From positions 1 to 49,340 of the forward strand of contig JBBTRH010000006.1 in NCBI GenBank assembly GCA_038065275.1: 49,340 bases of DNA, read 5' to 3'. Source of the stretch: Patescibacteria group bacterium (GTDB lineage Bacteria > Patescibacteriota > Patescibacteriia > SBBC01 > CAIJZX01). Under the pieces are notes generated by a model. That model was given only the letters and a program-made list of their open reading frames with translations. It ran no database searches and was not told the DNA's origin. Positions 2,957 through 48,866 of the stretch are shown here, piece after piece. A program made the position numbers and the translations under genes. Every line of letters starts with the position of its first letter. Position 1 is the stretch's first letter.

Positions 2957-5905
2957 ATGCCAGGCGTAATACCGGAGAAAGTTAATGCCGAACAACAGGC
3001 CGCCATCGCTCACGGCCGCGGGCCGTTGTTAATCGTGGCCGGGGCGGGAACGGGCAAGACCACGGTCGTAACGGAACGAATCGCCGATTTGATCAGGCAT
3101 CGGCAGGTGCCGTCGGATAATATTCTAGCCCTGACCTTCACCGACAAAGCGGCCGGCGAGATGCAGGAGCGGGTGGAGAAAATCCTGCCGTACGGTTTCG
3201 TTGACCTGTGGATCATGACATTCCACAGCTTCGGCCAGAAATTATTGGAGCGACACGCGCTCGATATCGGATTGTCAAATGATTTTCGGATCTTAACACA
3301 AACTGACCAGTGGTTGTTGATCCGCCGACATCTCGATGATTTCGATCTCGATTATTACCGCCCGCGCGGCAACCCGACGAAATTTATCAGCGCGTTGGTC
3401 AAACATTTCTCGCGGCTAAAAGACGAAGACATCAAGTCGGAAGAATATTTAAAGTACGCCCAGAGCCTCAACCGGCCGAAAACAAAGATCTCTGATGAAG
3501 ACAAAGCTGAAGCGAAAAGGGTTATGGAGTTGGCTAAAGCCTACGCGACGTATAACCAATTGTTACTCGATAATAATGCCCTCGACTTCGGCGATTTAAT
3601 TCTCGATACGTTAAAACTTCTGCGCGAGCGGCCGGCTATACTAAAAAAATACCAACAGCAATTTCAACACATTCTGGTCGATGAATTCCAAGACACCAAC
3701 TGGGCGCAATATGAGTTGATTAAGTTAATTGGGCGATTGAGGAATAATTTGACCGTGGTCGGTGACGATGACCAATCCATTTACAAGTTCCGCGGCGCGT
3801 CGGTGTCGAATATCATTTCTTTTCAGAAAGATTATCCCGACGCGCGGGTAATCGTGCTGACCAAAAACTACCGGACCAAACAAAATATTCTCGATTTAGC
3901 CTACAAATTCGTCCAACTTAATAATCCCGACCGGCTCGAAGCGAAGATTGCCGACATCGGTGGCCAAAAGGTGACCAAACAACTCGCCGCACAGCGCGAA
4001 GGTCAGGGTCTGATAAATTTGATGCACGTCGAAACTCAGGAAGCGGAAGCGCGGAGCGTGGGGGGAAAGATTTCGGATTTAAGATTTAAGAATAAAGATT
4101 TAAGTTGGGACGCGTTTTGCGTATTGGTGCGGGCCAACGACCATGCCGATATATTCATTAACGAGTTTGAGCGGCGCGGAATGCCTTACGTTTTTCTGGC
4201 CGCGCGCGGTTTGTTTCTCAAGCCGCTAGTCATCGACCTATTGTCATATTTGCGGCTACTCGATGATTACCATGAGGGCCCGGCGATGTACCGCTGTTTA
4301 GCCATGCCGATTTTCAATATCGACCATGGCGACGTAGTGGAACTTTCATACCATGCTCGAAAGAATACGCGGTCGATGTATGAACAGCTACATCACCTTG
4401 AGGATGCTAAGATCAGCGAGACTACAACCAAGGGCGTTAAAAAACTTTTGAACCTTATTTCAAAACACGCGGAAATTGCCGCCGGCAAACCAGTCGGTGA
4501 AGTCCTGCTTCATTTCCTGAACGATTCCGGTTACTTACAATCAATTACCAGCGCTGAGACTGTTCAATCACACGAACAAATCCGAGTACTAAATCAACTT
4601 TTTAAGGTGATTCAAAACTATCAACGCGCTGAACGACGTCCAGCGTCCGTCAAAACCTTCCTGCACTATGTTGGACACGTGGCGGAATCCGGCGACGCCG
4701 GCAGTCTGGAACATGACATTGAGATCGGCCCGGAAACGATCAAAATCATGACCATCCACGGTGCTAAGGGATTGGAGTTCCCTTACGTTTTCGTCGGCAA
4801 CGTGGTCGAACAGCGGTTCCCCGGCCAGGATCGCCAGGATCCGATTCCGGTGCCCGACGCGTTGGTGCGGGAAATATTGCCGCAAGGCGACGCCCATACG
4901 CAGGAGGAGCGGCGGTTGATGTACGTCGCCATCACCCGGGCCCGAGACGGTATATTTTTCACCGCGGCCGAGGATTATGGCGGCGCGCGGCGGAAAAAAC
5001 CGTCGCCGTTTCTGTATGAGCTGGGCTTGCTAGCGCCGCCGGTCAAAGCGGACAAGGTAAAACCTCTGCCGGTGGAACGGCAATTCCGACCAAGCCCGAC
5101 CGCCGTGAACGAAGCGGTGGCTTACAATCAACGCCCGAAATCTTTCAGTTTTACCAAACTCTCAACCTACCGCGACTGCCCCTGGAAATACCGTTACGCC
5201 TTTGTGCTCCAGGTCCCGAAGCGGGGGAGCCATGTTTTGTCTTACGGCTCTTCGATTCATAAAACGCTGTTTAATTTCTTTACGCTTTGGAAAGAAAGAT
5301 CGGCCGACACGGAACACAAGAAAAGTTCGGTCAGTTTGAACGAACTCATGACGATTTATGATCAGGCGTTTATTGACGAGTGGTATCCGACGAAGAAAGA
5401 GCGGACAAAATATTTTGAGCAAGGACGGAAGGCATTGACCGCCTGGTATAAAAAAACCGTCAAGAGCATGCCAAACGTTTTGAGTTTGGAGCAAGTGTTC
5501 AACCTGAAAATTGATTCATTCAACGTCACCGGCGCGATTGATCGGATTGACCAGGTCGGTGTTGATGTCAAAACTAAGAAGCCGTTGGTCAAAATCGTCG
5601 ACTACAAAACCGGTCGGGTGAAGGAGAAGTTTGAGAAGGATGATAAATACCAGCTGTTGATTTACACCCTGGCGGTTCAAGACCCGAATATTCTCGCCGG
5701 CGAAGTGAAAGAGCTGGAATATTATTTTATTGACGTAAATGAATCACGAAGCATGACGCCCACGGTCAAAGACGCCGCGGCGGCGAAAGACTGGGTCCGC
5801 CAAACAGTAACTAAAATCCAAACCGGCGATTTCCGCGCGACGCCGGATCCGATGGTATGCAAGTTTTGCGACTATCGGGAGATTTGCGAGTATCGGGCGG
5901 TATAA
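2957..5905 (+). CDS. UvrD/PcrA-family ATP-dependent DNA helicase with C-terminal PD-(D/E)XK nuclease and probable 4Fe-4S cluster (AddA/AdnB-like)
   Basis: Walker A AGAGTGKT, LVDEFQD, VGDDDQSIY, TIHGAKGLEF, EERRLMYVAITRA; nuclease IDRID...IVDYKTG; cysteines in CPWKY and CKFCDYREIC. Confidence 0.9.
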   Translation: MPGVIPEKVNAEQQAAIAHGRGPLLIVAGAGTGKTTVVTERIADLIRHRQVPSDNILALTFTDKAAGEMQERVEKILPYGFVDLWIMTFHSFGQKLLERHALDIGLSNDFRILTQTDQWLLIRRHLDDFDLDYYRPRGNPTKFISALVKHFSRLKDEDIKSEEYLKYAQSLNRPKTKISDEDKAEAKRVMELAKAYATYNQLLLDNNALDFGDLILDTLKLLRERPAILKKYQQQFQHILVDEFQDTNWAQYELIKLIGRLRNNLTVVGDDDQSIYKFRGASVSNIISFQKDYPDARVIVLTKNYRTKQNILDLAYKFVQLNNPDRLEAKIADIGGQKVTKQLAAQREGQGLINLMHVETQEAEARSVGGKISDLRFKNKDLSWDAFCVLVRANDHADIFINEFERRGMPYVFLAARGLFLKPLVIDLLSYLRLLDDYHEGPAMYRCLAMPIFNIDHGDVVELSYHARKNTRSMYEQLHHLEDAKISETTTKGVKKLLNLISKHAEIAAGKPVGEVLLHFLNDSGYLQSITSAETVQSHEQIRVLNQLFKVIQNYQRAERRPASVKTFLHYVGHVAESGDAGSLEHDIEIGPETIKIMTIHGAKGLEFPYVFVGNVVEQRFPGQDRQDPIPVPDALVREILPQGDAHTQEERRLMYVAITRARDGIFFTAAEDYGGARRKKPSPFLYELGLLAPPVKADKVKPLPVERQFRPSPTAVNEAVAYNQRPKSFSFTKLSTYRDCPWKYRYAFVLQVPKRGSHVLSYGSSIHKTLFNFFTLWKERSADTEHKKSSVSLNELMTIYDQAFIDEWYPTKKERTKYFEQGRKALTAWYKKTVKSMPNVLSLEQVFNLKIDSFNVTGAIDRIDQVGVDVKTKKPLVKIVDYKTGRVKEKFEKDDKYQLLIYTLAVQDPNILAGEVKELEYYFIDVNESRSMTPTVKDAAAAKDWVRQTVTKIQTGDFRATPDPMVCKFCDYREICEYRAV

Positions 5906-6004
5906 AAATCTCGGACGCGGCGTCCGATCGGCCGGAAAAGAAAATCCCCACTTCCGAAGAGGTGGGGGGAACATAGTGGTGAGGTCTTGCACTGCGCGGT
6001 GGGA

Positions 6005-6158
6005 GGTGGTGGAGGAGGGATTCCCGCCGACGCAACGCTTTGGCGGGCAGGCGGACCCTCGACGCGGGGTGGCATCCGGGCTCTCGCCAGGCGACCATGG
6101 TTCCCCGTTGGCGGCGGTTGTGTTCCGCTGTATCTTTCGACCACTCAGGCACTTCACC
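6005..6158 (-). pseudogene. Degenerate class II (Tyr/Ser-like) tRNA remnant with a palindromic insertion in the T loop
   Basis: Minus strand reads GGTGAAG-TGCCTGAGTGGTCGAAAG ... GAGGG-T[ccgcctgcccgccaaagcgttgcgtcggcgg]GAAT-CCCTC-CTCCACC-ACC. Acceptor pairs 6/7, T stem 5/5, no recognisable anticodon arm. Confidence 0.55.
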
Positions 6159-6185
6159 ACCCTGACCGGTTCAGGCCGACACCGG

Positions 6186-8243: not shown

Positions 8244-8323
8244 TCCCGTTAGAAATTCCTGCGGTCAAGTCGAAATATGACGCCATATTTTATGTCATCA
8301 TTAGAAAATAATTTCTAACGGGA
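8244..8323. repeat. 80-bp MITE/REP-like element with 14-bp terminal inverted repeats at the pheT start
   Basis: tcccgttagaaatt (8244-8257) / aatttctaacggga (8310-8323); ATGAA occurs on both sides. Confidence 0.8.
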
Positions 8324-10614
8324 TGAAAATCCCACGGTCATGGCTGAGGGAATACGTCGAGACCACTTTGCCGTCGACCGCGCTGGCGGAGCGGTTGATG
8401 ATGCACGGGCTCGAGGTCGAGAAGATTATCGACCGTCGCGGCGACTACGATCGCATCGTGGTCGGCGCCATTGTCGGCATCAAACCGCATCCGAAGGCGG
8501 ATAAACTTCAACTGGCATCGGTGGTCATTGCGCCGTCCGGCGAAGCCGGATCCGGCTCCGCCGGAAACGGGAAACCGCAGACCGTGGTGTGCGGCGCGCC
8601 GAATATCAAAGTCGGTCAGAAAGTGCCGGTCGCTCTGCTCGGCGCCAAGCTTCCGAACGGCGTGACCATCGAGTCACGGTCGATTCGCGGCATAGTTTCG
8701 GAAGGGATGCTTTGTGCTGAAGATGAGCTGGGCTTAAGGAACAACCATCAGGGCATTCTCATTCTCGACCCGGCCCTGAGAGCGGGTATGCCCCTGGCCA
8801 CCGCCCTGGGTTTTGACGAGGTGGTGATCGACATCGCCACTCCGGCTAACCGGCCCGACCTGATGTCTGTTCGCGGGCTGGCCTGGGAAATCGCCGCGAT
8901 CCTCGGTTTGAAATTTCACGAGCCGAAGCGACCGCATTTTATCGCTACTCCCACCATGAAGAAACCCTGGGTGGTGAAAGTAACCAATTCGAAACTCTGT
9001 CCGTTGTACACCGCCCGGGTCATCCGTAACGTGACGGTCAAACCGTCGCCCAGTTGGCTGCAACAACGTCTGACCGCCGTCGGCATTCGGCCGATCAACG
9101 CCATTGTTGACGCGACGAATCTGATCCTCCTGGAATACGGACAGCCGTTGCATGCGTTCGATGCCGCGAAAGTTCGGGGAGACATCGTCGTGCGTACCGC
9201 TCGCGCGGATGAACGCATCGTTACGCTTGATCGGGTCGCTCGCCGTTTAAACGCTCAGCAGATCGTCATTGCCGATGACAGCGGACCAATCGCTCTGGCC
9301 GGCGTCATGGGCGGCGCGGCCACGGAAATATCGGCCAGGACTACGGATGTCCTCCTCGAATCGGCGATTTTCGATCCGGTCAGTATTCGTCGGACATCGC
9401 GGAGCCTGGGACTCGTTTCGGAAGCGTCGAAACGGTTCGAGAAGGGCCTCCCGCCGCCGTTGCCCGAGCGGGCCAGCCGCGCCGCCGCCGCGCTGATCGT
9501 TGACCTTTGTGGCGGTCAGGTCGTTCCGGGCGTGACGGCCATCGGGACATCATCGACGAAGCCGGTCGTGGTCGCCGTTTCCCCGTCGTACTTCAGCGAA
9601 CTCCTCGGTCGGCCGCTCATTCCCGCGAAAGCAAAGCAGATCCTGCAGCGGCTGGGCTTCAAAGTCAGCGGCACCGCTAAGCGCTGGAGCGTGACCGTGC
9701 CGTCGTGGCGGCTGGACGTGACGCTACCCGAAGACCTCGTCGACGAGGTCGGGCGGCTGATCGGCTACGAACAGTTGCCGGAATCGATGCCGCTCATCAA
9801 TACGATTCCGCAGGGAATTCCGAAAGTCGTGCAACTGAAAGAACAAATTCGAGATGCGCTCTCAGGCTGGGGGCTGACAGAAGTCATCACCCACTCCTAT
9901 TACGGCGAACCTTGGGCCCGGGAAGCGCCAGGTCGACATCTCAAAGTGGCTAATCCGATCGACAAATCCCAACACTACCTTCGCCGGACGCTCTACCCCC
10001 AGACGCAAAGCATCCTGCGAGGCGAAGTGAAGCAGGGGAAGGAAGCGCGGATCTTCCAAATAGGCCGAGTGTTTACCCCTGAAGTAAGTGCAAAAGTTGA
10101 AAAAATTCAGCCCTGGAAGCTGATCGTAGCGGCGACGGTTAAAGTCAAGGCCGGCTATATAGCACCGCGTCGCATCGACGGAATCGTCGAAAACCTGTAC
10201 CAACAACTGAGCGTCGCGCCGGGCAAACCGCGATTTATCAGCTCATTTGACGCCCGGAGTTTCCCCGGGTGGATCGTCGAGTGGTGCGAACTGGACGTCG
10301 CGGACTTAGGACGGAACCGCCGGTCGCAGGTTTTTCACGAAGTACCGAAAGTCCCGCCCAGCTATCGTGATTTATCTTTTTGGGCACCGACCGACAAAAA
10401 GTACGCCGAACTTGAACGCGTTATACGGAATAATGGCGGCCGGTCCTTGGTGACGGTTGAACTCTTTGATGCTTTCGAGAAGGATCGGCGGCGCAGTTAC
10501 GCAATCCACCTCAAATTTCAAGCTCCCGACCGGACCCTGACGAAGGGGGAGGTGGATGAGGTGATGAAGAAGATCGAAAGGGGTTTGCGGGACATGCGCG
10601 CGGACATCCGATGA
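8323..10614 (+). CDS. pheT: Phenylalanine--tRNA ligase beta subunit
   Basis: HPKADKL, VVCGAPN, SEGMLCA, NRPDLMS, YGQPLHAFD, ALAGVMGG, PSWRLDV...EDLVDEVGR, FQAPDRTL. Confidence 0.96.
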   Translation: MKIPRSWLREYVETTLPSTALAERLMMHGLEVEKIIDRRGDYDRIVVGAIVGIKPHPKADKLQLASVVIAPSGEAGSGSAGNGKPQTVVCGAPNIKVGQKVPVALLGAKLPNGVTIESRSIRGIVSEGMLCAEDELGLRNNHQGILILDPALRAGMPLATALGFDEVVIDIATPANRPDLMSVRGLAWEIAAILGLKFHEPKRPHFIATPTMKKPWVVKVTNSKLCPLYTARVIRNVTVKPSPSWLQQRLTAVGIRPINAIVDATNLILLEYGQPLHAFDAAKVRGDIVVRTARADERIVTLDRVARRLNAQQIVIADDSGPIALAGVMGGAATEISARTTDVLLESAIFDPVSIRRTSRSLGLVSEASKRFEKGLPPPLPERASRAAAALIVDLCGGQVVPGVTAIGTSSTKPVVVAVSPSYFSELLGRPLIPAKAKQILQRLGFKVSGTAKRWSVTVPSWRLDVTLPEDLVDEVGRLIGYEQLPESMPLINTIPQGIPKVVQLKEQIRDALSGWGLTEVITHSYYGEPWAREAPGRHLKVANPIDKSQHYLRRTLYPQTQSILRGEVKQGKEARIFQIGRVFTPEVSAKVEKIQPWKLIVAATVKVKAGYIAPRRIDGIVENLYQQLSVAPGKPRFISSFDARSFPGWIVEWCELDVADLGRNRRSQVFHEVPKVPPSYRDLSFWAPTDKKYAELERVIRNNGGRSLVTVELFDAFEKDRRRSYAIHLKFQAPDRTLTKGEVDEVMKKIERGLRDMRADIR
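8536..8565. repeat. 30-bp GGATCC-centred palindrome, in frame in pheT (SGEAGSGSAG)
   Basis: tccggcgaagccggatccggctccgccgga; near-identical copies at 21280, 25074 and 47843. Confidence 0.85.
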
Positions 10615-14315: not shown

Positions 14316-14333
14316 TAACTTAGGCACACAAAT

Positions 14334-14516: not shown

Positions 14517-14520
14517 ACTT

Positions 14521-14583
14521 GTCGCGCCGCGAAAGAGGTTTATTAATACGCAGGCGAAATACGTGAAAAATTTGGATATTTAA
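14521..14583 (+). pseudogene. Displaced, recoded copy of the gyrB 3' end ([20 protein letters not shown])
   Basis: 18/20 aa identical to the gyrB end at 14253-14315; most differences are synonymous; same TAA. Confidence 0.9.
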
Positions 14584-36636: not shown

Positions 36637-36660
36637 TCTGACCTTTTTCCCTTGGGCGCT

Positions 36661-36737: not shown

Positions 36738-36762
36738 ACAAGCTTTTTGCTATACTCCTTTG

Positions 36763-37992: not shown

Positions 37993-38039
37993 GGAGTTTT
38001 TTAGACAAAACCATTGTTTATTGCTAGTCTGTTAGCAGT

Positions 38040-38867: not shown

Positions 38868-38870
38868 GAA

Positions 38871-39983
38871 ATGGCCACGCTCCGTTTTCGACAGTTGGGG
38901 CGGGGACTCGACCTCGGCCTGCTGACCGTCACCCTGCTGTTGACGGTCATTGGCCTGGGGGCGCTGTTCAGCACCTCACTGAATGCCGAACCGGCCGGCT
39001 TCTCGATCTTCTACCGCCAGCTGTCGTACGTCCTAATCGGACTGGGGGTGATTGTCTTTTTCACCCGGCTTGATTATCGCTACCTGGGAGGCATTCACTG
39101 GGTCTTGTACTTGGTCGGGATGGCCATGCTGATCGCGGTCCGGTTGTTCGGGCGGACGGTCAATGGCACGACGGGCTGGTTTGAAATCGCCGGTTTCCAG
39201 TTACAGCCGGTCGAATTCGTCAAGATCATCGTCGGCCTGGTGCTGGCCAAATACTTCGCCGACCACCTGAACGAGCTCCAATCATGGCGGGTGATATTTG
39301 TTACTGGCGCGCTGGTAGTCGGGCCGATCGTGCTAGTCATGCTCCAACCCGATCTCGGTTCAGCCATGCTCCTGTTCGGTATCTGGTTCGGTCTGTTAGT
39401 GGCCCTGCCCGTTCCCCGCCGCCGGGTCGGACTCCTGTTGCTGTTGACGGTGGTCGGAGCGGTGGCCAGCTGGTTCCTCATCCTTCAGCCGTATCAGAAA
39501 GAGCGGGTCCTTATTTTCATCTCGCCGAATCGCGACCGTCTCGGGTCGGGGTACAACGTTCAACAGGCGATCACGGCCATTGGCTCCGGCCAGATCTTCG
39601 GCCGCGGGCTTGGCCTCGGGCCGCAGTCACAACTGAATTTCCTTCCCGAACGACACACCGATTTCATCTTCGCGGCGATCAGCGAAGAGCTAGGATTCGT
39701 CGGAGCCGGCACCATCTTGCTTCTCTTCACCTTGCTCTTCTGGCGATTCTTCGGGTTGAGTCAACGGTGCCGAGATACGTTCAGCGCCGTCCTGACTATG
39801 GCCCTAGCCCTGATGTTCTTCGTCCAGGTGGCGATTAATATCGGCATGAATCTCGGCGTTTTCCCGGTCACCGGCATCCCGCTACCGTTTATCAGCTACG
39901 GCGGCAGTTCCCTCCTGTCGAGCTTGATGGCCATCGGCATCGCCGAGAGCATCGCCATCCGCCAGCGGATCATCCCGCTGTGA
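38871..39983 (+). CDS. rodA: SEDS-family peptidoglycan glycosyltransferase RodA
   Basis: QPVEFVK, QPDLGS, GYNVQQAITAIGSG, FLPERHTDFIF, TGIPLPFISYGGSS. Confidence 0.88.
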   Translation: MATLRFRQLGRGLDLGLLTVTLLLTVIGLGALFSTSLNAEPAGFSIFYRQLSYVLIGLGVIVFFTRLDYRYLGGIHWVLYLVGMAMLIAVRLFGRTVNGTTGWFEIAGFQLQPVEFVKIIVGLVLAKYFADHLNELQSWRVIFVTGALVVGPIVLVMLQPDLGSAMLLFGIWFGLLVALPVPRRRVGLLLLLTVVGAVASWFLILQPYQKERVLIFISPNRDRLGSGYNVQQAITAIGSGQIFGRGLGLGPQSQLNFLPERHTDFIFAAISEELGFVGAGTILLLFTLLFWRFFGLSQRCRDTFSAVLTMALALMFFVQVAINIGMNLGVFPVTGIPLPFISYGGSSLLSSLMAIGIAESIAIRQRIIPL

Positions 39984-39998
39984 GGCGTTAGGGGTTGA

Positions 39999-40100
39999 CC
40001 CCGTTAGAGGCGAACGTAGACATCAGGAGAACGGTTGATTTTTTCGGCGCCCTGAATTGCGACAGCTGACTGAGGCCAACCACCCTCGCCTCTAACGGGG
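39999..40100. repeat. 102-bp CCCCGTTAGAGG MITE-like element, TTGA on both sides
   Basis: TTGA-[ccccgttagaggcga...tcgcctctaacgggg]-TTGACG-17-TATACT. Confidence 0.85.
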
Positions 40101-40150
40101 TTGACGATTGTCGCGCTTCTTGGTATACTTGACGCGTAAGGAAAGGCCCC

Positions 40151-40513
40151 ATGAGCGATCATCTCTTCTCGCCACTTCATCACGGACGCCGTGACCTCCA
40201 GATCCTGGCCGTCTGTCCGATGTGTCAGGCGACGTATCATCCGCTGAAAACGCGCATTATGGCTGAACGGGATGACGCTCATCTGTTGTATCTCGAATGT
40301 CGCCAGTGCGGTAGCGCCGTGGTCGCCATTGTCACCGCCGGATCGGCCGGCCTCAGTTCGGTCGGCACCCTGACCGACCTGACTAGCGCGGAGGTCGTCA
40401 ACGTGTCGTTGGAAGTCGCGGTTACGGTCGACGACGTCGTCGATCTTTATGCCTGGCTGGCCACTGAGCCGACCGGGCAACTGATTTTGCGGCGGGAGAA
40501 AGCAATTCCGTAA
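40151..40513 (+). CDS. Zinc-ribbon hypothetical protein
   Basis: CPMC...CRQC; upstream of rplY. Confidence 0.8.
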   Translation: MSDHLFSPLHHGRRDLQILAVCPMCQATYHPLKTRIMAERDDAHLLYLECRQCGSAVVAIVTAGSAGLSSVGTLTDLTSAEVVNVSLEVAVTVDDVVDLYAWLATEPTGQLILRREKAIP

Positions 40514-40516
40514 GGT

Positions 40517-41200
40517 ATGACCATCCTACATCTATCCGCCCAACCACGGGCCGTGGTGGGCAAGGCGGTTGACCGTTTGCGTCGTCAGCGGAACATTCCG
40601 GCCGTCGTCTACGGTCACAATCTCCCCAGCCGGCCGGTAACGCTTGAGGCTAAAACGTTTGATACCATCTATCGCCAAGCCGGTTCGACCAGCCTGGTCG
40701 ACCTGTCAGTCGGGTCAGCGTCGCCAGTCAAGGTGCTCATCCATGCGGTCCAACGCCATCCCACGACCAGCCAAGCGCTCCACGTGGATTTTTACCAGGT
40801 CAAGATGAGCGAGAAACTCGAAGCCGACATTGAACTGCGTTTCGTCGGTGAATCGGCGGCCGTCAAGGAACTCGGCGGGGTGTTGGTCCGGGCCTTGGAC
40901 GACGTCAAGGTCAGCTGTTTACCGTCCGACCTGGTATCGTCGATCGATGTCGACATCAATACCTTGAAGACCTTTGAGGACAAGATCCATGTCCGCGATC
41001 TGACGGTGCCCGCCGGGTTGACCATCCTCGATAAAGCCGAAGAAGTCGTCGCCAGCGTCACTCCGCCGCGCAGTGAAGCTGAGTTGGCCTCCTTGAGCGA
41101 GCAGGTCGAAGAGAACGTGGAGGCCGTCGAAGTGGAGAAGAAAGAGGAAGCGGCCGACGAAGCCGTCCCCGAAGCCGTCCCCGAAAAACCAAATCAATAA
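40517..41200 (+). CDS. rplY: 50S ribosomal protein L25/Ctc
   Basis: IPAVVYG, QRHP...HVDFYQV, GESAAVKELGG. Confidence 0.95.
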   Translation: MTILHLSAQPRAVVGKAVDRLRRQRNIPAVVYGHNLPSRPVTLEAKTFDTIYRQAGSTSLVDLSVGSASPVKVLIHAVQRHPTTSQALHVDFYQVKMSEKLEADIELRFVGESAAVKELGGVLVRALDDVKVSCLPSDLVSSIDVDINTLKTFEDKIHVRDLTVPAGLTILDKAEEVVASVTPPRSEAELASLSEQVEENVEAVEVEKKEEAADEAVPEAVPEKPNQ

Positions 41201-41218
41201 CTCATCGCCATCGCGCCT

Positions 41219-42421
41219 ATGCCGAAAACCCCCCGCTCCTCCCCCCCAGTTTCCCAGTCGCAGTCGGATGAAGATGAACCGCTTGACCGCCCACCGACGC
41301 CAACCCCCGTCCCCAAACCGGCATCGGCGGAAACTCCGAAACCGACCGTGGTGAAGTCCTCTTCCTCGGCCGGTAAGAAGACGTTACCAAAATGGTTGTG
41401 GATGGCCGTGGCCGGAGCGGCGGTCTTAATTGTCGCTGGCGTGGTCGGTTGGAAGATCTTTGGCGGGACGTCATCGCCGACGGTCAATTCGAACCCGGCC
41501 GCCGATGCCGCGAATGAAATATTGGTGGCGCGACTACTTGATGGCGTGCCGGTCTTGGCCGAAAAATCAAACTCGAATATTTACGCGATCGTGATCGAGA
41601 ACATCGTTGAATCGCGGCCGCCGTCGGCCTTGGATAAAGCCAGCGTCGTCTACGAAACACTGGCGGAAGGCGGCATCACGCGGTTCCTGACGCTCTACCC
41701 GGTGGGTGATAGCATCAGTCAAATTGGTCCAGTCCGCTCCGCCCGGCCGTACTTCATTTCCTGGGCGGAAGAGTATAAACCATTGTTCGTTCATGCCGGC
41801 GGCAGTCCCCAGGCGATCGACTACCTCCGGTCTGGCAAAGCGAACGTCTATGATTTTAATCAGTTCTCCCACGGCGGAAACTTCATTCGCGACGATACCC
41901 GGCCGGCTCCGCATAATCTTTACACGGACTCCGACAAGTTATTCATGGGGCTACGACGGACGGCGCCCGATGCCACCCCGACCTACACCTCCTGGACATT
42001 CAAAGACGAAGCACCGATCGACGCTCGACCGACCACGGTGAATGATGTCGTGATCGACTTCTCGTCGTTCAACTACAAGGTGACGTACGCCTACGATCGC
42101 GTCCAGAACCGTTACCAGCGTTTAGTGGCCGAGAAGCCGCACCTGACGCGAGAGAATAATCAGATCTACGCCAAGGACGTGGTAGTCGAGTTCGCCAAAA
42201 TTGGTCTGGTCGCCGGTGATAAACAGCGCCTCGACATCCAAACCGTCGGTTCCGGCAAGCTATTGCTGTTCCGCGACGGGACCGTGACCGAAGGAACCTG
42301 GAAGAAGGACAGCCCCACCGCCCGCACCCAGTTCCTCGATACCGGCGGCAATCCCTTGGCGCTTAATCCCGGGCCAATCTGGATCGAGGTGGTCCCGACG
42401 GACCGCAAAGTGACGTACTGA
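41219..42421 (+). CDS. DUF3048 domain membrane-anchored protein
   Basis: VYETLAEGGITRF, IGPVRSARPY, HAGGS, APHNLY. Confidence 0.85.
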   Translation: MPKTPRSSPPVSQSQSDEDEPLDRPPTPTPVPKPASAETPKPTVVKSSSSAGKKTLPKWLWMAVAGAAVLIVAGVVGWKIFGGTSSPTVNSNPAADAANEILVARLLDGVPVLAEKSNSNIYAIVIENIVESRPPSALDKASVVYETLAEGGITRFLTLYPVGDSISQIGPVRSARPYFISWAEEYKPLFVHAGGSPQAIDYLRSGKANVYDFNQFSHGGNFIRDDTRPAPHNLYTDSDKLFMGLRRTAPDATPTYTSWTFKDEAPIDARPTTVNDVVIDFSSFNYKVTYAYDRVQNRYQRLVAEKPHLTRENNQIYAKDVVVEFAKIGLVAGDKQRLDIQTVGSGKLLLFRDGTVTEGTWKKDSPTARTQFLDTGGNPLALNPGPIWIEVVPTDRKVTY

Positions 42422-42458
42422 CGATGTCAGCGTCGTCGCCCGGGCCAGTCCGAACGTA

Positions 42459-43337
42459 TCATCTCCGGGCGGGCGACGGGACGCAGGTGTTGATTCGGCC
42501 GCTACAAGCCAGTAACCCGCGAATGGCTAGGCCGTCACTGACGGTCGTGACCGTCGCGGTTGAGGACCAGCGGCGGAGCAAGTCGCGAGTCGTTCGGACT
42601 TGGCCCGGGTCGATTTCCAAGGCGATAAGCGATATCGTTGGGAAAGTCGCGGCTTGGCGCAGTAAACGCCGGATATGATCTAGGCCGTCTCGACCGCCGG
42701 CTAGCGCTAGGCGCGGTTCGTGGCTAATCGAAGGTTCAGCCAGTTGCTCCGGGCGGAGGTAAGGGAGGTTAGCAATGATGAAGTCTGGTTGTAGGGCGTT
42801 AGGTTGTAAGTTGTAGGATTTAAGTAGAGAACATTGTAGGAATGAAATGTGGTCGGCTAATCTTAATTGATGAGCATTCTTTTTCGCTGTAGCTAAAGCC
42901 GCTGACGAAATATCGGTGGCGATGATCGTGGCTTGAGGCAAATGTTTGGCTAGGGCTAGGGCGATGGCACCGCTACCGGTACCGATGTCGGCGATAGTCA
43001 GTCGCGAGTTTATCGGCAGGCGTTGCAGGATTGCTTCCACGAGAAGTTCCGTGCATGGCCGCGGGATAAGCGCCGCTGGCGTGACGCGCAGTTCCAATCC
43101 GAAAAAACAGCATCGGCCGGTCAGGTAGGGGACAGGGACTTTGTTGGCGCGTTGTAGGATTAAGGTTGTAAGTTTGCGGGTGACGGCTTGTTTAAGCACA
43201 CGATCCCCATGAATAAGCAGGCTCGCACGATCTTGGTTGAGGATGTAGCTGAGCAGAACTTCAGCGTCGAGCCGTGGCGAATCGCTGTGTCTCCGCAGTT
43301 TTTTTGTGGCCGCGGCTAGCGCCGCTCTAATGGTCAC
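42459..43337 (-). CDS. prmC: Release factor glutamine methyltransferase
   Basis: LIPRPCTE, DIGTGSGAIA, ANLPY, EPRLALAGGRDGL; the GTG start is formed at the end of a repeat element. Confidence 0.92.
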   Translation of the reverse strand: MTIRAALAAATKKLRRHSDSPRLDAEVLLSYILNQDRASLLIHGDRVLKQAVTRKLTTLILQRANKVPVPYLTGRCCFFGLELRVTPAALIPRPCTELLVEAILQRLPINSRLTIADIGTGSGAIALALAKHLPQATIIATDISSAALATAKKNAHQLRLADHISFLQCSLLKSYNLQPNALQPDFIIANLPYLRPEQLAEPSISHEPRLALAGGRDGLDHIRRLLRQAATFPTISLIALEIDPGQVRTTRDLLRRWSSTATVTTVSDGLAIRGLLACSGRINTCVPSPARR

Positions 43338-43509
43338 CCCGTTAGAAGTTCACTTGATAAGCGGAACCTTGACGGCCGTAATGGCACCATCTTACTTCAA
43401 ACAATTGAATACACACATGGGCCGTCGCGGCACTCCGACCGAGGAAGAAATTACCGTTGTTCATCATTTTAACAATTTGCGGTTGATATTAGGCGAACTT
43501 CTAACGGGG
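43337..43509. repeat. 173-bp CCCCGTTAGA element inserted into the original prmC start
   Basis: ccccgttagaagttc / gaacttctaacgggg 15-bp TIR; minus strand reads ATGA-[element]-TGACC. Confidence 0.85.
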
Positions 43510-43619
43510 TCATCCCCGTACCATAATGGTGAACACGTTGGTTGTCGAGTGGGTTTTATGTTTCTCCGGCGGTCTCATAGCCACTCGAGAAACGCTGTCT
43601 AAGCTATTGTGGTGCTGGG

Positions 43620-44684
43620 TCACGCCGCGTGCCGTTTGGCGCGGGCCGCGGCGCGCAGGGCGTCGATCAGCGGCTGGATGTCGCCGTCGAGAATGGCGGG
43701 AATGTGGTGGCGGGTCAATTTGATTCGGTGATCGGTGATGCGATCCTGGGGAAAGTTATAGGTCCGGATTTTTTCCGAGCGGTCGCCGCTCCCGATTTGG
43801 CTCTGGCGGAGATGGGAATCGCGCTGACGACGTTCGGCCTCTTGTTTGGCGAGGAGTCGCGAACGCAAAACTTGCATCGCTTTGATGCGATTCTGAGTCT
43901 GCGACCGCTCATCCTGCATCGAGACGGTAATGCCGGTCGGCAAGTGCGTCAGGCGGATGGCGGAGTAAGTGGTGTTGACCGATTGCCCGCCGGCGCCGCT
44001 CGAAGTGGAAGCCACGATTTTCAAATCTTTCGGATCAATCACTAGGTCGGCTTCTTCGGCGGCGGGAACCACGGCCACGGTTACGGTTGACGTATGCACC
44101 CGGCCGGTTTTCTCGGTGGCTGGAACGCGTTGGACGCGGTGCACCCCGCTTTCGTACTTCATGGCGCCGTAGGCATCAGGTCCGAGCATTTCGAAGATCA
44201 CTTCTTTCAAGCCGCCGATCCCGGTGTGACTCGACGAGATGAGGTTCGTCTTCCACCCCCGACGTTCGGCGTAACGGCCGTACATCCGCAGGAGCTCGGC
44301 GGCAAACAGCGCCGCTTCGTCGCCGCCGGCGCCGGCCCTGATTTCGACGATCACGTCCTGTTGGTCGTTCGAGTCGGGCGGGTCCAGCCGGTCCTCAACG
44401 TCGCGACGGACGGCGGCCAGTTCCCGGGCGATATTCGCCACTTCGTCCGCGGCCATTGACTGCACTTCTGGATCGGTCTCATCCGTGGCCGCCGTCCGGG
44501 CTTGGCCGAGCGCCCGCTCGAGTCCAGTCAGGCGTTCCGCGCGCGCTACTAGGTCGCTCAGCCGGGCGTATTCGCGGGCGAGATGTTTGAGCTTGGCGGC
44601 GTCATCGACAAGACTGGCGGCTTGGAGATCGTGTTCCAGCGCCTGACGTTGTTGTCGAAGGCGGTCGAGTTGAGCTGGGTCCAT
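43620..44684 (-). CDS. prfA: Peptide chain release factor 1
   Basis: [21 protein letters not shown] (PxT), [17 protein letters not shown]. Confidence 0.97.
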
Positions 44685-44738
44685 GGATGTGCCGAAGTAC
44701 CTCCACCCAAAAAATAGGGGAGGTTTTCAAGAGGGGGG

Positions 44739-45023
44739 TTATTCGTCGCGGGTCGCTTTAGCGACCTTTTTGGCCTGCTTGGCTTGCCGCTTGGCGCGTT
44801 TGCTCCGTAGCGGAACCGTCCCGCTACGCTTGACCCGTTTCTGGAAGCGATCGACACGGCCGGCGGTGTCGACCAGATTCTGCTTGCCGGTGAAGAATGG
44901 GTGGCAATTCGAACAGACCTCAACCGGGAGCTCCGCCACGGTTGAGCCGGTGGTAAAGGCGTGACCGCAGGCGCAGGTGACTTTGGCCGAGTGGGTGTAG
45001 GTGAGGTGGATGCCCGATTTCAT
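44739..45023 (-). CDS. rpmE: 50S ribosomal protein L31
   Basis: [26 protein letters not shown]. Confidence 0.96.
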
Positions 45024-45054
45024 AACTGGCCCAGCGTATCCTATTCTAGCACCC

Positions 45055-45083
45055 TTGTCAAGCCCGGACCGCCATGGTATACT
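45055..45083 (+). promoter_or_regulatory. rpsB promoter, overlapping the divergent rpmE promoter
   Basis: TTGTCA-17-TATACT on +; TTGACA-17-TACGCT on - sharing the -35 region. Confidence 0.65.
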
Positions 45084-45114
45084 CGCACCGGCTTATTAGA
45101 GATTATTAGTTGAT

Positions 45115-45190
45115 CACACATTCACCGCGCTGACGGCTAATCCTGCGGCGGCTCGTGGCGAGCCGACGTCCTGGCCGATAGCGGTGGAGC
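45115..45190 (+). promoter_or_regulatory. Probable S2 autoregulatory leader
   Basis: CACACA-TTCACCGC...GCGGTGGAG stem upstream of rpsB; followed by the palindrome tctccgcc-gaa-ggcggaga (45193-45211). Confidence 0.5.
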
Positions 45191-45230
45191 GGTCTCCGCC
45201 GAAGGCGGAGAAAGAAAGGAATTCAGTGCT

Positions 45231-46019
45231 ATGCGTGACATCGTCTTGCTCGACATGCTCAAAGCGGGTCTTCATTTCGGCCACCAGCAGAGCCGTCGGC
45301 ATCCAAAAATGGACCCCTACATCTTCACCACTCGGGGCGGGGTGTCCATCATCAACCTGGAAAAGACCAAGACCCTGTTAACCCAGGCTGGTGCCTATGC
45401 CCAGGAGGTCGTCGCCGGCGGCGGCACGGTCTTGTTCGTCGGCACCAAACGGCAGGCCCGCGACATCATCATCACGGCGGCGCAGACGGCCGGCATGCCG
45501 TACGTCGTCGACCGCTGGATCGGCGGACTGTTTACGAATTTCTCGCACGTGCGGCAGTTGATCATCAGCCTCGATCGGTTAAAAACGCAACGCGCCAGCG
45601 GTGAACTTGGGAAGTACACCAAGAAGGAACAACTCGATTTCGAAGCGGAGATCACGCGGCTGGAAAAACTGGTCGGCGGTTTGGGAGCGATGGAACGACT
45701 GCCGCAAGCGATCTTCGTGGTCGACATCAAGACCGAGAAAACCGCGGTCCGTGAAGCCCAGGCCGTGAATATCCCGATTCTAGCCATGTGCGATACGAAC
45801 GTCAACCCGGCCCCCATCCAATTCCCCATTCCGTCGAACGACGATGCGACGAAAGCCGTCACCTACGTGACCGGACTGCTGGTCGAGGCCATTACTGAGG
45901 GTCGGCGGCACCACGACCAGCGCCTGGCCACGGCGGCCCGGGAAGCGGCGGAAACGGCCGCCGCGGCCGAACCGGAACCCGTCGTAGCCGCGACCATCCC
46001 CGAACCGGCGGAACAATAA
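45231..46019 (+). CDS. rpsB: 30S ribosomal protein S2
   Basis: AGLHFGH, LFVGTK, RWIGGLFTN, DTN, PSNDD. Confidence 0.97.
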   Translation: MRDIVLLDMLKAGLHFGHQQSRRHPKMDPYIFTTRGGVSIINLEKTKTLLTQAGAYAQEVVAGGGTVLFVGTKRQARDIIITAAQTAGMPYVVDRWIGGLFTNFSHVRQLIISLDRLKTQRASGELGKYTKKEQLDFEAEITRLEKLVGGLGAMERLPQAIFVVDIKTEKTAVREAQAVNIPILAMCDTNVNPAPIQFPIPSNDDATKAVTYVTGLLVEAITEGRRHHDQRLATAAREAAETAAAAEPEPVVAATIPEPAEQ

Positions 46020-46020
46020 T

Positions 46021-46611
46021 ATGCCCACTATCTCCACCGCCGACATCCAGACGCTCCGCCGGCAGACCGGCGTCGGGATACTGGAAGCGAAAAAGGCCTT
46101 GACCACTGCGAACGGCGACATGACCTTGGCCGTGGACACCCTGCGCAAGGCCGGCCGGAAACTGGCCGCGGCCAAAAGCACCCGGACCGTGCGCGAGGGA
46201 CTGGTCGGCACCTACCTGCATGCGAACGGAAAGGTGGCGGCCATGGTGGTGCTTGCCTGCGAAACTGATTTCGTGGCCCGGACGGATGATTTTGCCGATT
46301 TAGCCCATGACCTGGCGCTCCACATTGCCGCCGTTGACCCGCGCTACCTCCGCCGTGAAGATGTTCCGGTCGCGGTGCTCGATCGGGAACGCGACATTTA
46401 CCGCGCCCAGCTCAAGACGGCCGGCCAGCCGAAAAAGATGTGGCCGGCGATCATCAACGGCCAGCTGGAAAAGTTTTACGCCGACGTCTGTCTGCTGGAT
46501 CAAGCGTACGTCAAAGACGATCGCCGGACCGTGGGACAGCTGATCGAGTCAACGGTGGCTAAACTCGGCGAGAACATCCAAGTGAGTTCCTTCGCCCGCC
46601 TGACCGTCTAA
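46021..46611 (+). CDS. tsf: Elongation factor Ts (short form)
   Basis: LRRQTGVG, CETDFVA, LGENIQV. Confidence 0.95.
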   Translation: MPTISTADIQTLRRQTGVGILEAKKALTTANGDMTLAVDTLRKAGRKLAAAKSTRTVREGLVGTYLHANGKVAAMVVLACETDFVARTDDFADLAHDLALHIAAVDPRYLRREDVPVAVLDRERDIYRAQLKTAGQPKKMWPAIINGQLEKFYADVCLLDQAYVKDDRRTVGQLIESTVAKLGENIQVSSFARLTV

Positions 46612-46616
46612 CCGCC

Positions 46617-47576
46617 ATGCTGATCGATAGTATCGCCATCATCGTTCTCGGGCTCAGCCTGATTAGCCTGGCCGTCATCATCGGTCGAAAATTCCCGACC
46701 TTGGCGGCAATTGATACGTCGGCGCCGGCGGAGGCGACGGCGGGACGCAAGCGGAACATTATTGAAGAACGGCTACGGCGTAAAGTGTCTATGCTCTGGA
46801 CCAAGGTCGCCGGACAAAGTACCCCGATCGCCGTCGCTACCGGCCGGCTCTGGACCGCGGCCCATAAAAAGCTGATTGATCTTGAACACGAATACAAGGT
46901 GCGGTCACTGCCGGTCTTCCTGTCGCGGCGCCAGCGGCGGAAAATCGATCACGAAATCGCCGCGATGCTAGAACAGGCGCGGGCACTCGTTGACGACAAG
47001 GAATATGCCGCGGCCGAAGAAAAGGCGTTGCAGGCGATTCGCCTCGAACCCCGCTCGGTTCCCGCCTTCGAACTTCTCGGCCAGCTCTACCTGGTTACCA
47101 AGGAGCACGGCCACGCCAAAGAGGTGTATCAGTACTTGCTCAAGCTGACGGGCGACTCCGACGCCATCTACGAGCACCTGGGATCAGCTGATCTCGGCGC
47201 CGGACATCTCGCCGAGGCGCGCGACGAGCTCCAACACGCCGTCGAACTCAACCGCACGGTGGCCACCTATCATTTGGAACTGGCCCAGGTGTACACTGCT
47301 CTCGGCGACGCGGCTAAAGCGTTTACCAGCATTCAAGAAGCCGTTCGTCTCGAGCCGAACAACCCCAAACTGCTCGACCAGTACGTTGAAATAAGTATCG
47401 CCGCCGGCAAGAAACAGTTTGCCGAGGATGCGGTGGCCCGTATCGAGGCCGTCAACCCCGAAAACTCGAAGATCGCCGAGTGGCGCGAACGGATTACGGC
47501 GATTGAGGGTCGGCCCTTGACGAATCTCATTGAAACATCCGATACTGCCGACTCGACAACTTCCGCGCCGTTGTAG
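46617..47576 (+). CDS. Membrane-anchored tetratricopeptide repeat protein
   Basis: N-terminal TM; TPR-like A..LEP, LG..Y repeats. Confidence 0.85.
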   Translation: MLIDSIAIIVLGLSLISLAVIIGRKFPTLAAIDTSAPAEATAGRKRNIIEERLRRKVSMLWTKVAGQSTPIAVATGRLWTAAHKKLIDLEHEYKVRSLPVFLSRRQRRKIDHEIAAMLEQARALVDDKEYAAAEEKALQAIRLEPRSVPAFELLGQLYLVTKEHGHAKEVYQYLLKLTGDSDAIYEHLGSADLGAGHLAEARDELQHAVELNRTVATYHLELAQVYTALGDAAKAFTSIQEAVRLEPNNPKLLDQYVEISIAAGKKQFAEDAVARIEAVNPENSKIAEWRERITAIEGRPLTNLIETSDTADSTTSAPL

Positions 47577-47614
47577 TCCCGATGTTCCGCCAGGCAGTTG
47601 GCCCCGCTACTTCT

Positions 47615-47689
47615 GCCCACGTAGCTCAGTGGTAGAGCAGCTCCATGGTAAGGAGCAGGTCCGCGGTTCAAGCCCGCGCGTGGGCTCCA
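47615..47689 (+). tRNA. tRNA-Thr(GGT), intact
   Basis: GCCCACG/CGTGGGC acceptor, GCTCC-atGGTaa-GGAGC, TTCAAGC T loop, encoded CCA. Confidence 0.93.
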
Positions 47690-47719
47690 GAAGCGGCGGG
47701 GTGAATGACACAACACTAT

Positions 47720-47800
47720 GCCTGTCCCGCACCCGAGTGGAACAAGTGGTGCGGGGGGCTAAGGAGTAGGTCCGCGGTTCAAATCCGCGCATAGGCTCCA
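47720..47800 (+). pseudogene. tRNA-Thr(GGT)-like remnant; D arm and 5' anticodon arm replaced by a CCCGCACC...GGTGCGGG palindrome
   Basis: 5' GCCTGT pairs with 3' ATAGGC; intact 3' half taaggagtaggtccgcggttcaaatccgcgcataggctcca (47760-47800). Confidence 0.8.
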
Positions 47801-47842
47801 CGTTTCTCGCAACAACACTTTCAGGCTAAGTCACAGATGGTT

Positions 47843-47893
47843 TCCGGCAAAGCCGGATCCGGCTCCGCCGGACAAATCCGGTCATCGGCTCCA
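47843..47893 (+). pseudogene. 30-bp GGATCC palindrome fused to a tRNA-Thr-like 3' end
   Basis: tccggcaaagccggatccggctccgccgga + caaatccggtcatcggctcca. Confidence 0.7.
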
Positions 47894-47918
47894 CGTTTTC
47901 CGAAGAACAGTACATCAT

Positions 47919-48127
47919 GGGTCGGTAGCGAAGTGGTCATCCCGCACCACTTTCCTTCACAATATTATTGAGTAATCTGCATTTACGGGCAGGTGACGGA
48001 GCGGTCAATCGTACCTGACTGTAAATCAGGCGGCCTCGTGCCTACGCAGGTTCGAATCCTGCCCTGCCCACCAGATTACTCTCTCATGAAGGAAAGTGGT
48101 GCGGGACGAATCCTGCCCGGCCCACCA
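47919..48127 (+). pseudogene. Outer split tRNA-Tyr (5' 47919-47939, 3' 48107-48127) enclosing an IR cassette
   Basis: GGGTCGG pairs with CCGGCCC-ACCA; 20-bp perfect IR at 47940-47959 / 48087-48106 forms the junctions. Confidence 0.85.
47987..48073 (+). tRNA. tRNA-Tyr(GTA), intact, nested
   Basis: GGGCAGG/CCTGCCC, CCTGA-ctGTAaa-TCAGG, long variable arm, ACCA. Confidence 0.95.
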
Positions 48128-48132
48128 AATAT

Positions 48133-48459
48133 ATGTACATCGTGTACATTTTACAAAGCGTCAAAACAGCCCGGTATTATATTGGACACTGTGAAGATTT
48201 GTCTGTACGCTTAAAGAAACACAACGCAGGTAAAGTTCGCTCAACGAAATCCGGGCGGCCCTGGAAAGTTGTTCGAACGAAAAAGTATCCTGCCCGTGCC
48301 GAAACATATAGGCGAGAGAGGCAGATAAAGTCCTATAAAGGCGGGAAGGCATTTAAATCGCCACTGACCGCCACCGCTTCGAGCGGGGTGTCGGCTGGTG
48401 CCTCCATAAATCAGGCGGCCTCGCGCCTTCGCAGGTTCTCCCGCCCATTCATAAGATAA
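48133..48459 (+). CDS. GIY-YIG nuclease (small, YhbQ-like); C-terminus reads into a tRNA remnant
   Basis: VYILQS...YYIG...RLKKHN.G...STK...RPW...RERQIKSYKGG. Confidence 0.85.
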   Translation: MYIVYILQSVKTARYYIGHCEDLSVRLKKHNAGKVRSTKSGRPWKVVRTKKYPARAETYRRERQIKSYKGGKAFKSPLTATASSGVSAGASINQAASRLRRFSRPFIR

Positions 48460-48511
48460 TAAACACTGGCGGGATCCCGCCGGAGGTAGGAGAATCCTGC
48501 CCTGCCCACCA
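48407..48511 (+). pseudogene. tRNA-Tyr 3' half with a 53-nt double-hairpin insertion in the T loop
   Basis: taaatcaggcggcctcgcgccttcgcaggttc-[tcccgcc...ggcgggatcccgccggaggtagga]-gaatcctgccctgcccacca. Confidence 0.85.
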
Positions 48512-48563
48512 CGAAGACGAAAACGAAAGAAAGTTGTGCTGGGTGAGAAATCCTGCCCCCCAG

Positions 48564-48798
48564 GCCTGAGTAGCTCAGCTGGCAGAGCAACGGTTTTATC
48601 CCGCCCCTGAGAATAGGATATAGTAGGCGGGATCATCGAAGTTCTTTCAAAATCTTGCCGGAGTAGCTCAGCGGTAGAGCAACGGTTTTGTAAACCGTAG
48701 GTCGGAGGTTCAAATCCTCTCTCCGGCTCCACCGGCAAGATTTTGGGAACTTCGGGATAAACCGTAGGTCGCCGGTTCGATCCCGGCCTCAGGCTCCA
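48564..48798 (+). pseudogene. Outer tRNA-Thr-type gene split in the anticodon (5' 48564-48597, 3' 48758-48798) by a 160-nt insert
   Basis: All four stems pair perfectly (GCCTGAG/CTCAGGC, GCTC/GAGC, ACGGT/ACCGT, GCCGG/CCGGC), TCCA end; only position 35 is replaced by the insert. Confidence 0.9.
48657..48731 (+). tRNA. tRNA-Thr(TGT), intact, nested
   Basis: GCCGGAG/CTCCGGC, ACGGT-ttTGTaa-ACCGT, TTCAAAT, TCCA. Confidence 0.95.
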
Positions 48799-48866
48799 GA
48801 GAAGTGTAAGTTAATTAAGTTGATTAGTTAATTAAGTTGTCAAAGTTGGTGGCCGGAAAGGAAATT

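Follow-up and report, generated by a model that had tools for sequence, protein, structure and literature searches.

Candidate small mobile DNA elements with YCCCG inverted-repeat ends, associated with single-domain GIY-YIG nucleases, in a Patescibacteria genome

We analysed a stretch of 49,340 nucleotides (nt) from a Patescibacteria group bacterium, which is the entire contig C6 (JBBTRH010000006.1) of a 33-contig, 1.09-Mb genome of ~57% G+C and is referred to here as the window. We judge it rather probable that this DNA carries two related kinds of small mobile element, both with YCCCG inverted-repeat ends and both associated with very small GIY-YIG nucleases that have a single domain and belong to the UPF0213/Slx1-like branch. 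An earlier note on the same sequence had described ten hairpin-ended elements as one system. All ten are present, and they are indeed hairpin-ended insertions with very different interiors. However, they split into two sequence families of five sites each, so that the single system gives way to two or more YCCCG families, each with targets of its own, alongside unrelated palindrome families.

Results

Family 1 elements are abundant and have paired ends

The two strands of the genome together contain the terminal 9-mer of family 1 and its complement 187 times, against a mean of 8.65 over all 9-mers, and this is the commonest 9-mer among those that are not pure G+C. The shared termini proposed in the earlier note are therefore far above chance for this family. 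Pairing of the ends gave 78 elements, 20 of them 70–78 nt long, 37 of 94–101 nt, five of 129–132 nt, ten of 168–175 nt and a few of other lengths; in addition, of 33 ends left unpaired ("orphans"), 16 can be matched at these spacings to a partner with one mismatch. The genome holds about 90 of these gene-less derivatives, in classes of 75, 99, 130 and 170 nt, which retain only the paired ends, and the interiors are mostly unrelated from copy to copy.

The paired ends are 13–15 bp long, with ~15-bp pairing. In 71 of 76 elements (93%; C–G in 53, T–A in 18) the bases outside CCCG and CGGG are complementary to each other, stem positions 9–11 are 92–93% paired and show three or four kinds of pair apiece, and beyond stem position 13 pairing drops to ~25%, which is background. 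Folded as single-stranded DNA, four family 1 copies from the window close on the terminal stem with z-scores of −3.4 to −6.7; the 173-nt copy at 43337 was left out of this folding.

Family 1 elements have duplicated flanks and preferred targets

An exact 3–5-nt direct repeat flanks 49 of the 76 elements, compared with ~9.6 after flank shuffling, where the Y/R base next to CCCG/CGGG is counted as part of the element. The duplications are typically of 3–4 nt, within an overall range of 3–11 nt. The start of an outward open reading frame (ORF) of at least 80 aa adjoins 32 of the 76 elements (16.6% at random points), and TTGAC adjoins 21 (0.8% at random). Size class and target go together: the 99-nt class lies mostly at GTTGAC/GTCAAC and the 75-, 130- and 170-nt classes mostly at ATG/GTG starts. 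Across the genome, copies are also found in tRNA loops and within other copies.

We compared the insertion points with orthologous sites in genomes of the same genus (G001, G003 and G004; DNA identity ~70%). The pheS/pheT junction is uninterrupted in G001 and G004 (...TAATATG...), while the window genome reads TGATATGAA[T...A]TGAAAATC. Likewise, the prfA/prmC site of G003 is uninterrupted, ACATGACGATAGCC (M-T-I-A), and corresponds to ATGA[C...G]TGACCATT in the window genome. The orthologous miaA/HAD spacer of G001, TTGACCTTGACA, also has no element, although this empty site is less clean than the other two.

The family 1 copies in the window are without genes, 80–173 nt long, with termini YCCCGTTAGA...TCTAACGGGR, and occupy five sites plus a degenerate sixth. 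They lie among genes typical of Patescibacteria (Candidate Phyla Radiation): pheST, gyrB, gatB, thrS, dnaE, ftsW, prfA/prmC and genes for ribosomal proteins, a DUF5671 protein and a 23S-IVS protein. Two copies sit within start codons. At 8244–8323, an 80-nt element with a 15-bp terminal stem (z −5.35) interrupts that of pheT, where TGAA is duplicated and the terminal A of the element restores ATG. At 43337–43509, the 173-nt element interrupts that of prmC, where TGA is duplicated and the terminal G gives a GTG start. Three further copies are followed by TTGAC, a predicted −35 box: the 101-nt element at 27496–27596, between the divergent miaA and HAD genes, with TTGACA at its right end; the 100-nt element at 30267–30366 (z −6.65), with TTGA duplicated and TTGACA on the right flank; and the 102-nt element at 39999–40100, 3′ of the ftsW stop, with TTGA duplicated and TTGACG-17 nt-TATACT beyond it. 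In the degenerate copy at 30164–30259, the left repeat (30164–30181, minus strand) encodes the start codon and first five codons of thrS, giving the N-terminus MSSLTG from ATGTCTTCTCTAACGGG. The proposal that function is restored at most sites thus holds for the pheT and prmC starts, judged against their uninterrupted orthologues, and takes the form of predicted boxes at the three TTGAC sites. It fails at 36971, where an in-frame length had been suggested and the hairpin pair measures 62 nt.

The complete family 1 unit encloses a small GIY-YIG nuclease gene

The complete form of family 1 is ~275–300 nt long and holds nothing but the gene of a ~85-aa stand-alone GIY-YIG nuclease inside its inverted repeats. 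In this genome one unit alone, C32:19525–19823 (299 nt), encloses a small GIY-YIG ORF, which is open from repeat to repeat. No convincing larger unit bounded by family 1 repeats was found here, the few pairings of 654–2950 nt resembling unrelated ends. Both 9-mers occur 230–330 nt apart in 17 of 301 genomes of the class, against none for the reversed control, and a GIY-YIG frame fills the interior at 13 of the 16 loci from the other class genomes (E ≤3e-17; L014–L016 do not have one). These repeat-bounded proteins have 83–93 aa. A class scan at 331–430-nt spacing gave nine matches in five genomes, several of which, from their first 80 bases, are nuclease units with nested copies. At spacings up to 430 nt outside this genome, GIY-YIG was the only enclosed gene and no transposase bounded by family 1 repeats was found.

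A profile (A1) built from eight repeat-bounded proteins, searched against the contigs of one genome per species, returned at least 587 relatives. The best 80 of these come from many Patescibacteria lineages, Omnitrophota, Planctomycetota, Nitrospirota, Thermodesulfobacteriota, Elusimicrobiota, Clostridia and others, with 62–73% protein identity except for L064, which is identical to the first sequence of the profile. Repeats of the form CCCGTTAG...CTAACGGG enclose 69 of the best 80 loci, in units of 272–294 nt in 68 cases and 312 nt in one. Most of the enclosed genes have their own ATG just within the left repeat and a stop in or just beyond the right repeat. A host ORF begins at the unit boundary in 25 loci, and in 23 of them it lies downstream of the nuclease gene in the same orientation; the usual junction between unit and host is ATGAAT/CCCG...CGGG/ATGAA. 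The small GIY-YIG nuclease that the earlier note had named as an associated gene is borne out by the C32 unit and by these loci in other genomes.

The solved structures closest to both nuclease types, the repeat-bounded one and the one found beside tRNA genes, are UPF0213 (1zg2, 1ywl) and Slx1. Alignment separates the repeat-bounded type (…YYE.C…YLKSGMGKRYLKNR…) from the tRNA-linked type, which includes the protein encoded in the window. There are 12 small GIY-YIG ORFs in the genome, nine of them with a tRNA gene within 400 nt.

Family 2 hairpins and cassettes lie in tRNA gene remains

The family 2 sites are TCCCGC, TCCCGCC or TCCCGAC hairpins, and four of the five lie within the remains of tRNA-Thr and tRNA-Tyr genes in the region 47615–48801, which consists of layered tRNA copies with stacked tRNA-Thr 3′ halves separated by similar spacers. 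The window has three tRNA genes, all in this region, and one small GIY-YIG ORF; the features described here are on the plus strand. The working tRNA-Thr(GGT) is intact at 47615–47689. It is followed by a hairpin, TCCCGCACC...GGTGCGGGG, at 47725–47756, which adjoins a displaced tRNA-Thr 3′ half (47757–47800). The tRNA-Tyr cassette at 47940–48106 has 20-nt inverted repeats, TCCCGCACCACTTTCCTTCA and TGAAGGAAAGTGGTGCGGGA (47940–47959 and 48087–48106), around an intact tRNA-Tyr (47987–48073). An older tRNA-Tyr lies in two pieces on either side of it, a 5′ piece with the acceptor and D arm (47919–47939), broken after GGTCA, and a 3′ piece (48107–48127), broken in the T-loop.

The small stand-alone GIY-YIG nuclease ORF comes next (48133–48459; Pfam GIY-YIG at residues 1–67), its tail extending into a decayed tRNA-Tyr copy (48407–48438). 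The T-loop of this decayed copy contains the degenerate site at 48439–48491, a 36-nt TCCCGCC...GGCGGGA hairpin (48439–48474) with a 17-nt half copy (48475–48491), and the 3′ end of the tRNA follows at 48492–48511. Further on, an older tRNA-Thr 5′ half (48564–48598), broken in the anticodon loop, and its matching 3′ half (48758–48798) enclose a 34-nt hairpin, TCCCGCCCC...GGCGGGA (48599–48632), and the tRNA-Thr(TGT) cassette (48633–48757), in which a 23-bp terminal stem surrounds an intact tRNA (48657–48731; z −9.73). Whole replacement tRNAs, as the earlier note had described them, are thus carried by both cassettes.

The pattern extends beyond the window. Outside the annotated tRNA genes of the genome there are 38 tRNA fragments, which lie beside intact copies and often in several layers (for example, C9:12662–12961 and C5:127174–127851). 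Their breakpoints cluster at tRNA positions 33–37, in the anticodon loop, and in the T-loop, and YCCCG/CGGGR lies within ~10 nt of 18 of the 38 (7.4% of random intervals). Contigs from four metagenome runs (X2, X4, X6 and X9) were aligned to 29000–48900 of the window, and those of X2 and X6 join 48594 to 48758, bringing the tRNA-Thr halves together with ATCG between them. We considered this joint as an empty allele and rejected it, taking it for the intact tRNA-Thr of other organisms.

The fifth family 2 site, at 36971–37032 on the plus strand, is a copy of a double-hairpin subfamily with two tandem TCCCGAC...GTCGGGA hairpins of 30 and 32 nt (z −4.37), and the same hairpin types occur elsewhere away from tRNA genes. 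A TCCCGAC double hairpin that resembles it is located upstream of thrS in a same-genus genome (L028, in G002).

Short CCCG...CGGG hairpins in general are enriched only ~3-fold (82 against 20–37 in Markov-simulated genomes), and other G+C-rich four-letter ends, with 38–134 hairpins, are as common as CCCG. Taken by itself, the common YCCCG end is thus weak evidence; the strong evidence for family 2 is its position at the tRNA fragments. As judged from sequence, the shared ends suggest, without proving, that the two families belong to one system.

Gene-end duplications and other palindromes

Duplicated ends of gyrB and gatB had been read as products of the same process. The duplications are real: the last 20 gyrB codons recur at 14521–14580 (90% protein identity), 3′ of an ORF for a 60-aa membrane protein, and a 14-codon copy of the gatB 5′ end (24866–24907) is cut by a 33-nt CCACGT...ACGTGG hairpin (z −5.2; region 24866–24940), with the working gatB start 13 nt beyond this hairpin. 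No YCCCG termini were found at either duplication, so membership in the same system is not established. The gyrB 3′ end (window 14316–14583) is a hot spot with no hairpin termini, where the passenger ORF varies between genomes and is accompanied each time by a displaced copy of the tail; in G004 (L059, C110:1166–1858), the ORF at this position encodes a 207-aa HAD-type hydrolase and is followed by the tail copy.

Two further palindrome families are present. The first, a perfect palindrome of 30 nt (YCCGGCnnAGCCGGR YCCGGCTnCGCCGGR), is present 15 times in the genome, with four of the copies in the window (8536–8565, 21280–21309, 25074–25103 and 47843–47872), and is also found in G003, G004 and G009. 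In pheT and gatB it is inserted without breaking the frame and encodes a 10-aa loop rich in Gly and Ser. A third tRNA-Thr 3′ end (47873–47893), which is decayed, has the copy at 47843–47872 in its T-loop. The second is a 33-nt segment at 37385–37417, which is absent from contigs of X2, X4 and X6 and comprises a 26-nt CACGTA...TACGTG hairpin with a 7–8-nt direct repeat (GCCCCGC). It belongs to a different family of mini-hairpins and is polymorphic between filled and empty; sister copies of that family elsewhere are flanked by GCGGAGC repeats.

Discussion

A proposed route of insertion

Elements of the first kind consist, when complete, of a 13–17-bp inverted repeat (YCCCGTTAGAR...) around one ~85-aa nuclease gene, ~275–300 nt in all, and we propose that they insert at xTGA-type sites, that is ATGA/GTGA starts and TTGAC −35 boxes, with a 3–4-nt duplication. 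The duplicated bases, together with the terminal R/Y base of the element, would rebuild the start codon or box. The second kind comprises TCCCGC-type hairpins and tRNA-gene cassettes, with or without a nuclease gene, that lie within resident tRNA genes, in the D-loop, the anticodon loop or the T-loop; the cassette provides a working tRNA and the old gene remains in pieces. In both cases the element ends may pair in single-stranded DNA regardless of the loop content, the nuclease may bind the terminal stem and nick beside it, and host replication or repair may then, in a way that resembles homing, bring a copy of the element into a target that has been nicked. Copying of this sort would account for the variable 3–11-nt duplications and for the displaced gene ends. 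The small GIY-YIG enzymes would be the mobilising enzymes and may, by analogy, work like the Ssn single-strand nucleases discussed below.

A stronger form of the proposal is tentative, and we would put it forward as a possibility that may well prove wrong. The ~275-bp unit of repeats and nuclease could be an autonomous transposon that crosses phyla using a hydrolytic single-strand nuclease and host repair, with no transposase or recombinase, and would then be the smallest self-mobilising DNA element known to us; sister nucleases could plant the tRNA cassettes in tRNA genes through the same stem recognition.

Several observations weigh against the proposal that the nucleases move these elements. 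GIY-YIG enzymes hydrolyse DNA, and we know of no strand-transfer chemistry among them. A classical transposase leaves the same mark, inverted repeats and a short duplication at a target that is GTYRAC-like and nearly palindromic. G002 has nine gene-less copies and yet no enclosed nuclease at exact termini. An exact inverted repeat that starts with CCCG lies within 300 nt of only four of the 12 small GIY-YIG ORFs (background 11.75%), and in a stricter test with short hairpins two of the 12 have one at that distance. The protein tree resolves the two nuclease types poorly, with three changes needed for the repeat-bounded group and no inner branch starred. The published degenerate SRM motif of the Ssn repeats is not enriched, with ten matches in the genome against 6–8 in simulations and none in the window. 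Survivorship may be an alternative explanation for part of the start-codon and −35 pattern. Finally, no empty allele of a family 1 element was found among the contigs of X2, X4, X6 and X9 over 29000–48900. The same-strain contigs either cross the elements or end at them, and many joints are tRNAs of other organisms; the missing empty allele is therefore uninformative either way.

Alternative explanations

The earlier note had implicated HUH enzymes, and the hairpins could be elements like repetitive extragenic palindromes (REP) or REPINs, moved by the RAYT-like HUH (Y1) proteins of the window (14913–15467 and 37303–37992). We consider this very unlikely. Of the five RAYT-like loci that the genome does have, the window contains two, and the double hairpin at 36971 is ~270 nt upstream of one of these. 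Among 41 relatives, a RAYT-like match is present in 12 of the 14 genomes that carry 99-nt-class elements and in 11 of the 27 that do not, a comparison that ignores kinship. On the other hand, no inverted repeat beginning with CCCG lies within 300 nt of any of the five RAYT-like ORFs. All five fall below the NF047646 cut-off of 80, with 66.8 bits for the best locus and 61 and 54.2 for the whole window ORFs, and both window copies are split between their HUH and Tyr halves by perfect in-frame palindromes (15115–15150 and 37709–37740). G002 (100% complete) has its nine elements without a RAYT-like match, whereas G033 has nine such matches and no element, and in every enclosed unit examined the gene is GIY-YIG and never RAYT. 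A reading of the elements as host regulatory modules under selection, promoter or leader hairpins that do not move, would suit their location at promoters and start codons and the covariation of their stems. It is extremely improbable because orthologous sites are empty, and the flank duplications, the copies in tRNA loops and inside other copies, and a complete form with a nuclease gene that is common to many phyla all speak against it too.

Inverted repeats with a short flank duplication are the typical pattern of cut-and-paste transposition, and the gene-less copies might be ordinary MITEs (miniature transposable elements with inverted repeats) moved in trans by an unrecognised DDE-type transposase, with the GIY-YIG gene as cargo or a domesticated passenger. 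The 3–4-nt duplication at a GTYRAC-like target, the lack of any strand transfer by GIY-YIG enzymes that we know of and the persistence of the G002 copies without an enclosed nuclease gene would all fit. Against this, the 299-nt nuclease element is the largest repeat-bounded unit in the genome, and a ~275-nt unit of nuclease and repeats alone is conserved over many phyla at 62–73% protein identity, which is not expected of a mere passenger. Transposases also usually leave duplications of fixed length, whereas here the length varies from 3 to 11 nt. Taken together, we regard a hidden transposase as unlikely. For the tRNA region by itself, homing would be an alternative, in which the nuclease cuts a loop of tRNA genes on incoming or sister DNA, repair copies the nuclease gene along with an intact tRNA, and the hairpins are scars or immunity marks. 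The clustering of breakpoints at anticodon and T-loops, the nine nuclease ORFs beside tRNA genes, the stacked tRNA-Thr 3′ halves with their similar spacers, and the action of T4 SegB at the tRNA T-stem-loop as described in PMC2330249 lend it some weight. However, the same hairpin types are found away from tRNA genes, both cassettes have long terminal stems around the tRNA as inserted units do, and old halves flank the tRNA-Thr(TGT) cassette on both sides, the pattern of a simple insertion. Homing as the whole account of this region thus seems to us somewhat doubtful, and we continue to favour two kinds of YCCCG-ended mobile DNA associated with small nucleases.

The observations of the earlier note were therefore largely right and its interpretation is partly supported, in its GIY-YIG component and not in its HUH component. 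If the nuclease does the moving, this would be DNA transposition by a new route and would provide a programmable insertion unit of very small size, and it would explain the hairpins and gene fragments that litter the tRNA genes, promoters and gene starts of these ultra-small bacteria. Such litter misleads the annotation of genes and tRNAs.

Comparison with known systems

In a literature search, which covered the Ssn paper without its supplements, we found no description of these elements in Patescibacteria or of Ssn-type mobility. No integrase is involved at these sites, in line with the earlier note. A likeness of GTTAGAG/CTCTAAC to the core of integron attC sites was considered and dropped, the polarity being reversed and no integrase lying near.

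Like REP/REPIN–RAYT systems, the elements would have hairpins read as single-stranded DNA by a small enzyme, a gene flanked by its own repeats and many gene-less copies. Unlike RAYT and IS200/IS605 transposition, which relies on a covalent HUH tyrosine enzyme, the enzyme here would be a hydrolytic GIY-YIG nuclease. IS200/IS605 elements are without terminal inverted repeats and make no duplication. The Correia elements of Neisseria and the Rickettsia palindromic elements are also small inverted-repeat elements; Correia ends create promoters, and the Rickettsia elements insert in frame. We know of no transposase and of no enclosed nuclease gene for either, and both differ from the present elements in sequence and in their duplications (TA for Correia).

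For the tRNA cassettes, the closest known system is SegB of phage T4, a larger, multi-domain protein. It is a GIY-YIG homing endonuclease that recognises a motif of the tRNA T-stem-loop and spreads with neighbouring tRNA genes (PMC2330249). The likeness lies in a GIY-YIG nuclease gene among tRNA genes and may extend to the target, the fragment breakpoints here including the T-loop. The substrate of SegB is double-stranded DNA, in phage crosses, and its abstract mentions neither hairpin repeats nor displaced tRNA fragments (PMC2330249), whereas here a cellular genome has hairpin-bounded tRNA cassettes and layered tRNA debris.

Overall, the closest known system is the pair formed by the Ssn nuclease and its NTS hairpin. 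As described in Chenal et al. 2025 (PMC11893778), SsnA of Neisseria meningitidis (~94 aa) binds the hairpin TCCCGCG...CGCGGGA in single-stranded DNA only and cuts just upstream of the stem, and it accepts a split stem and can dispense with the loop. A stem with a long cargo loop is therefore a plausible substrate. The same account notes that ssnA is often flanked by the NTS repeat, likens NTS-ssnA-NTS to an insertion sequence and leaves the mobility of this gene-plus-repeat unit as a hypothesis (PMC11893778). Against that description, the two systems share a ~90-aa single-domain GIY-YIG protein that accompanies hundreds of hairpin repeats, a stem base of TCCCG...CGGGA and repeats on both sides of the nuclease gene. 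They differ in that Ssn has a complete hairpin on each side, whereas here the gene or cargo is bracketed by half-stems in the form of terminal inverted repeats. Duplicated flanks, orthologous sites that are empty and insertions into start codons, −35 boxes and tRNA loops are further features that set the present elements apart. The present sequences supply the genomic signs of mobility that had been missing for this type of nuclease, with ends around the gene, duplications, empty sites, ~90 derivatives and a unit that occurs in many phyla.

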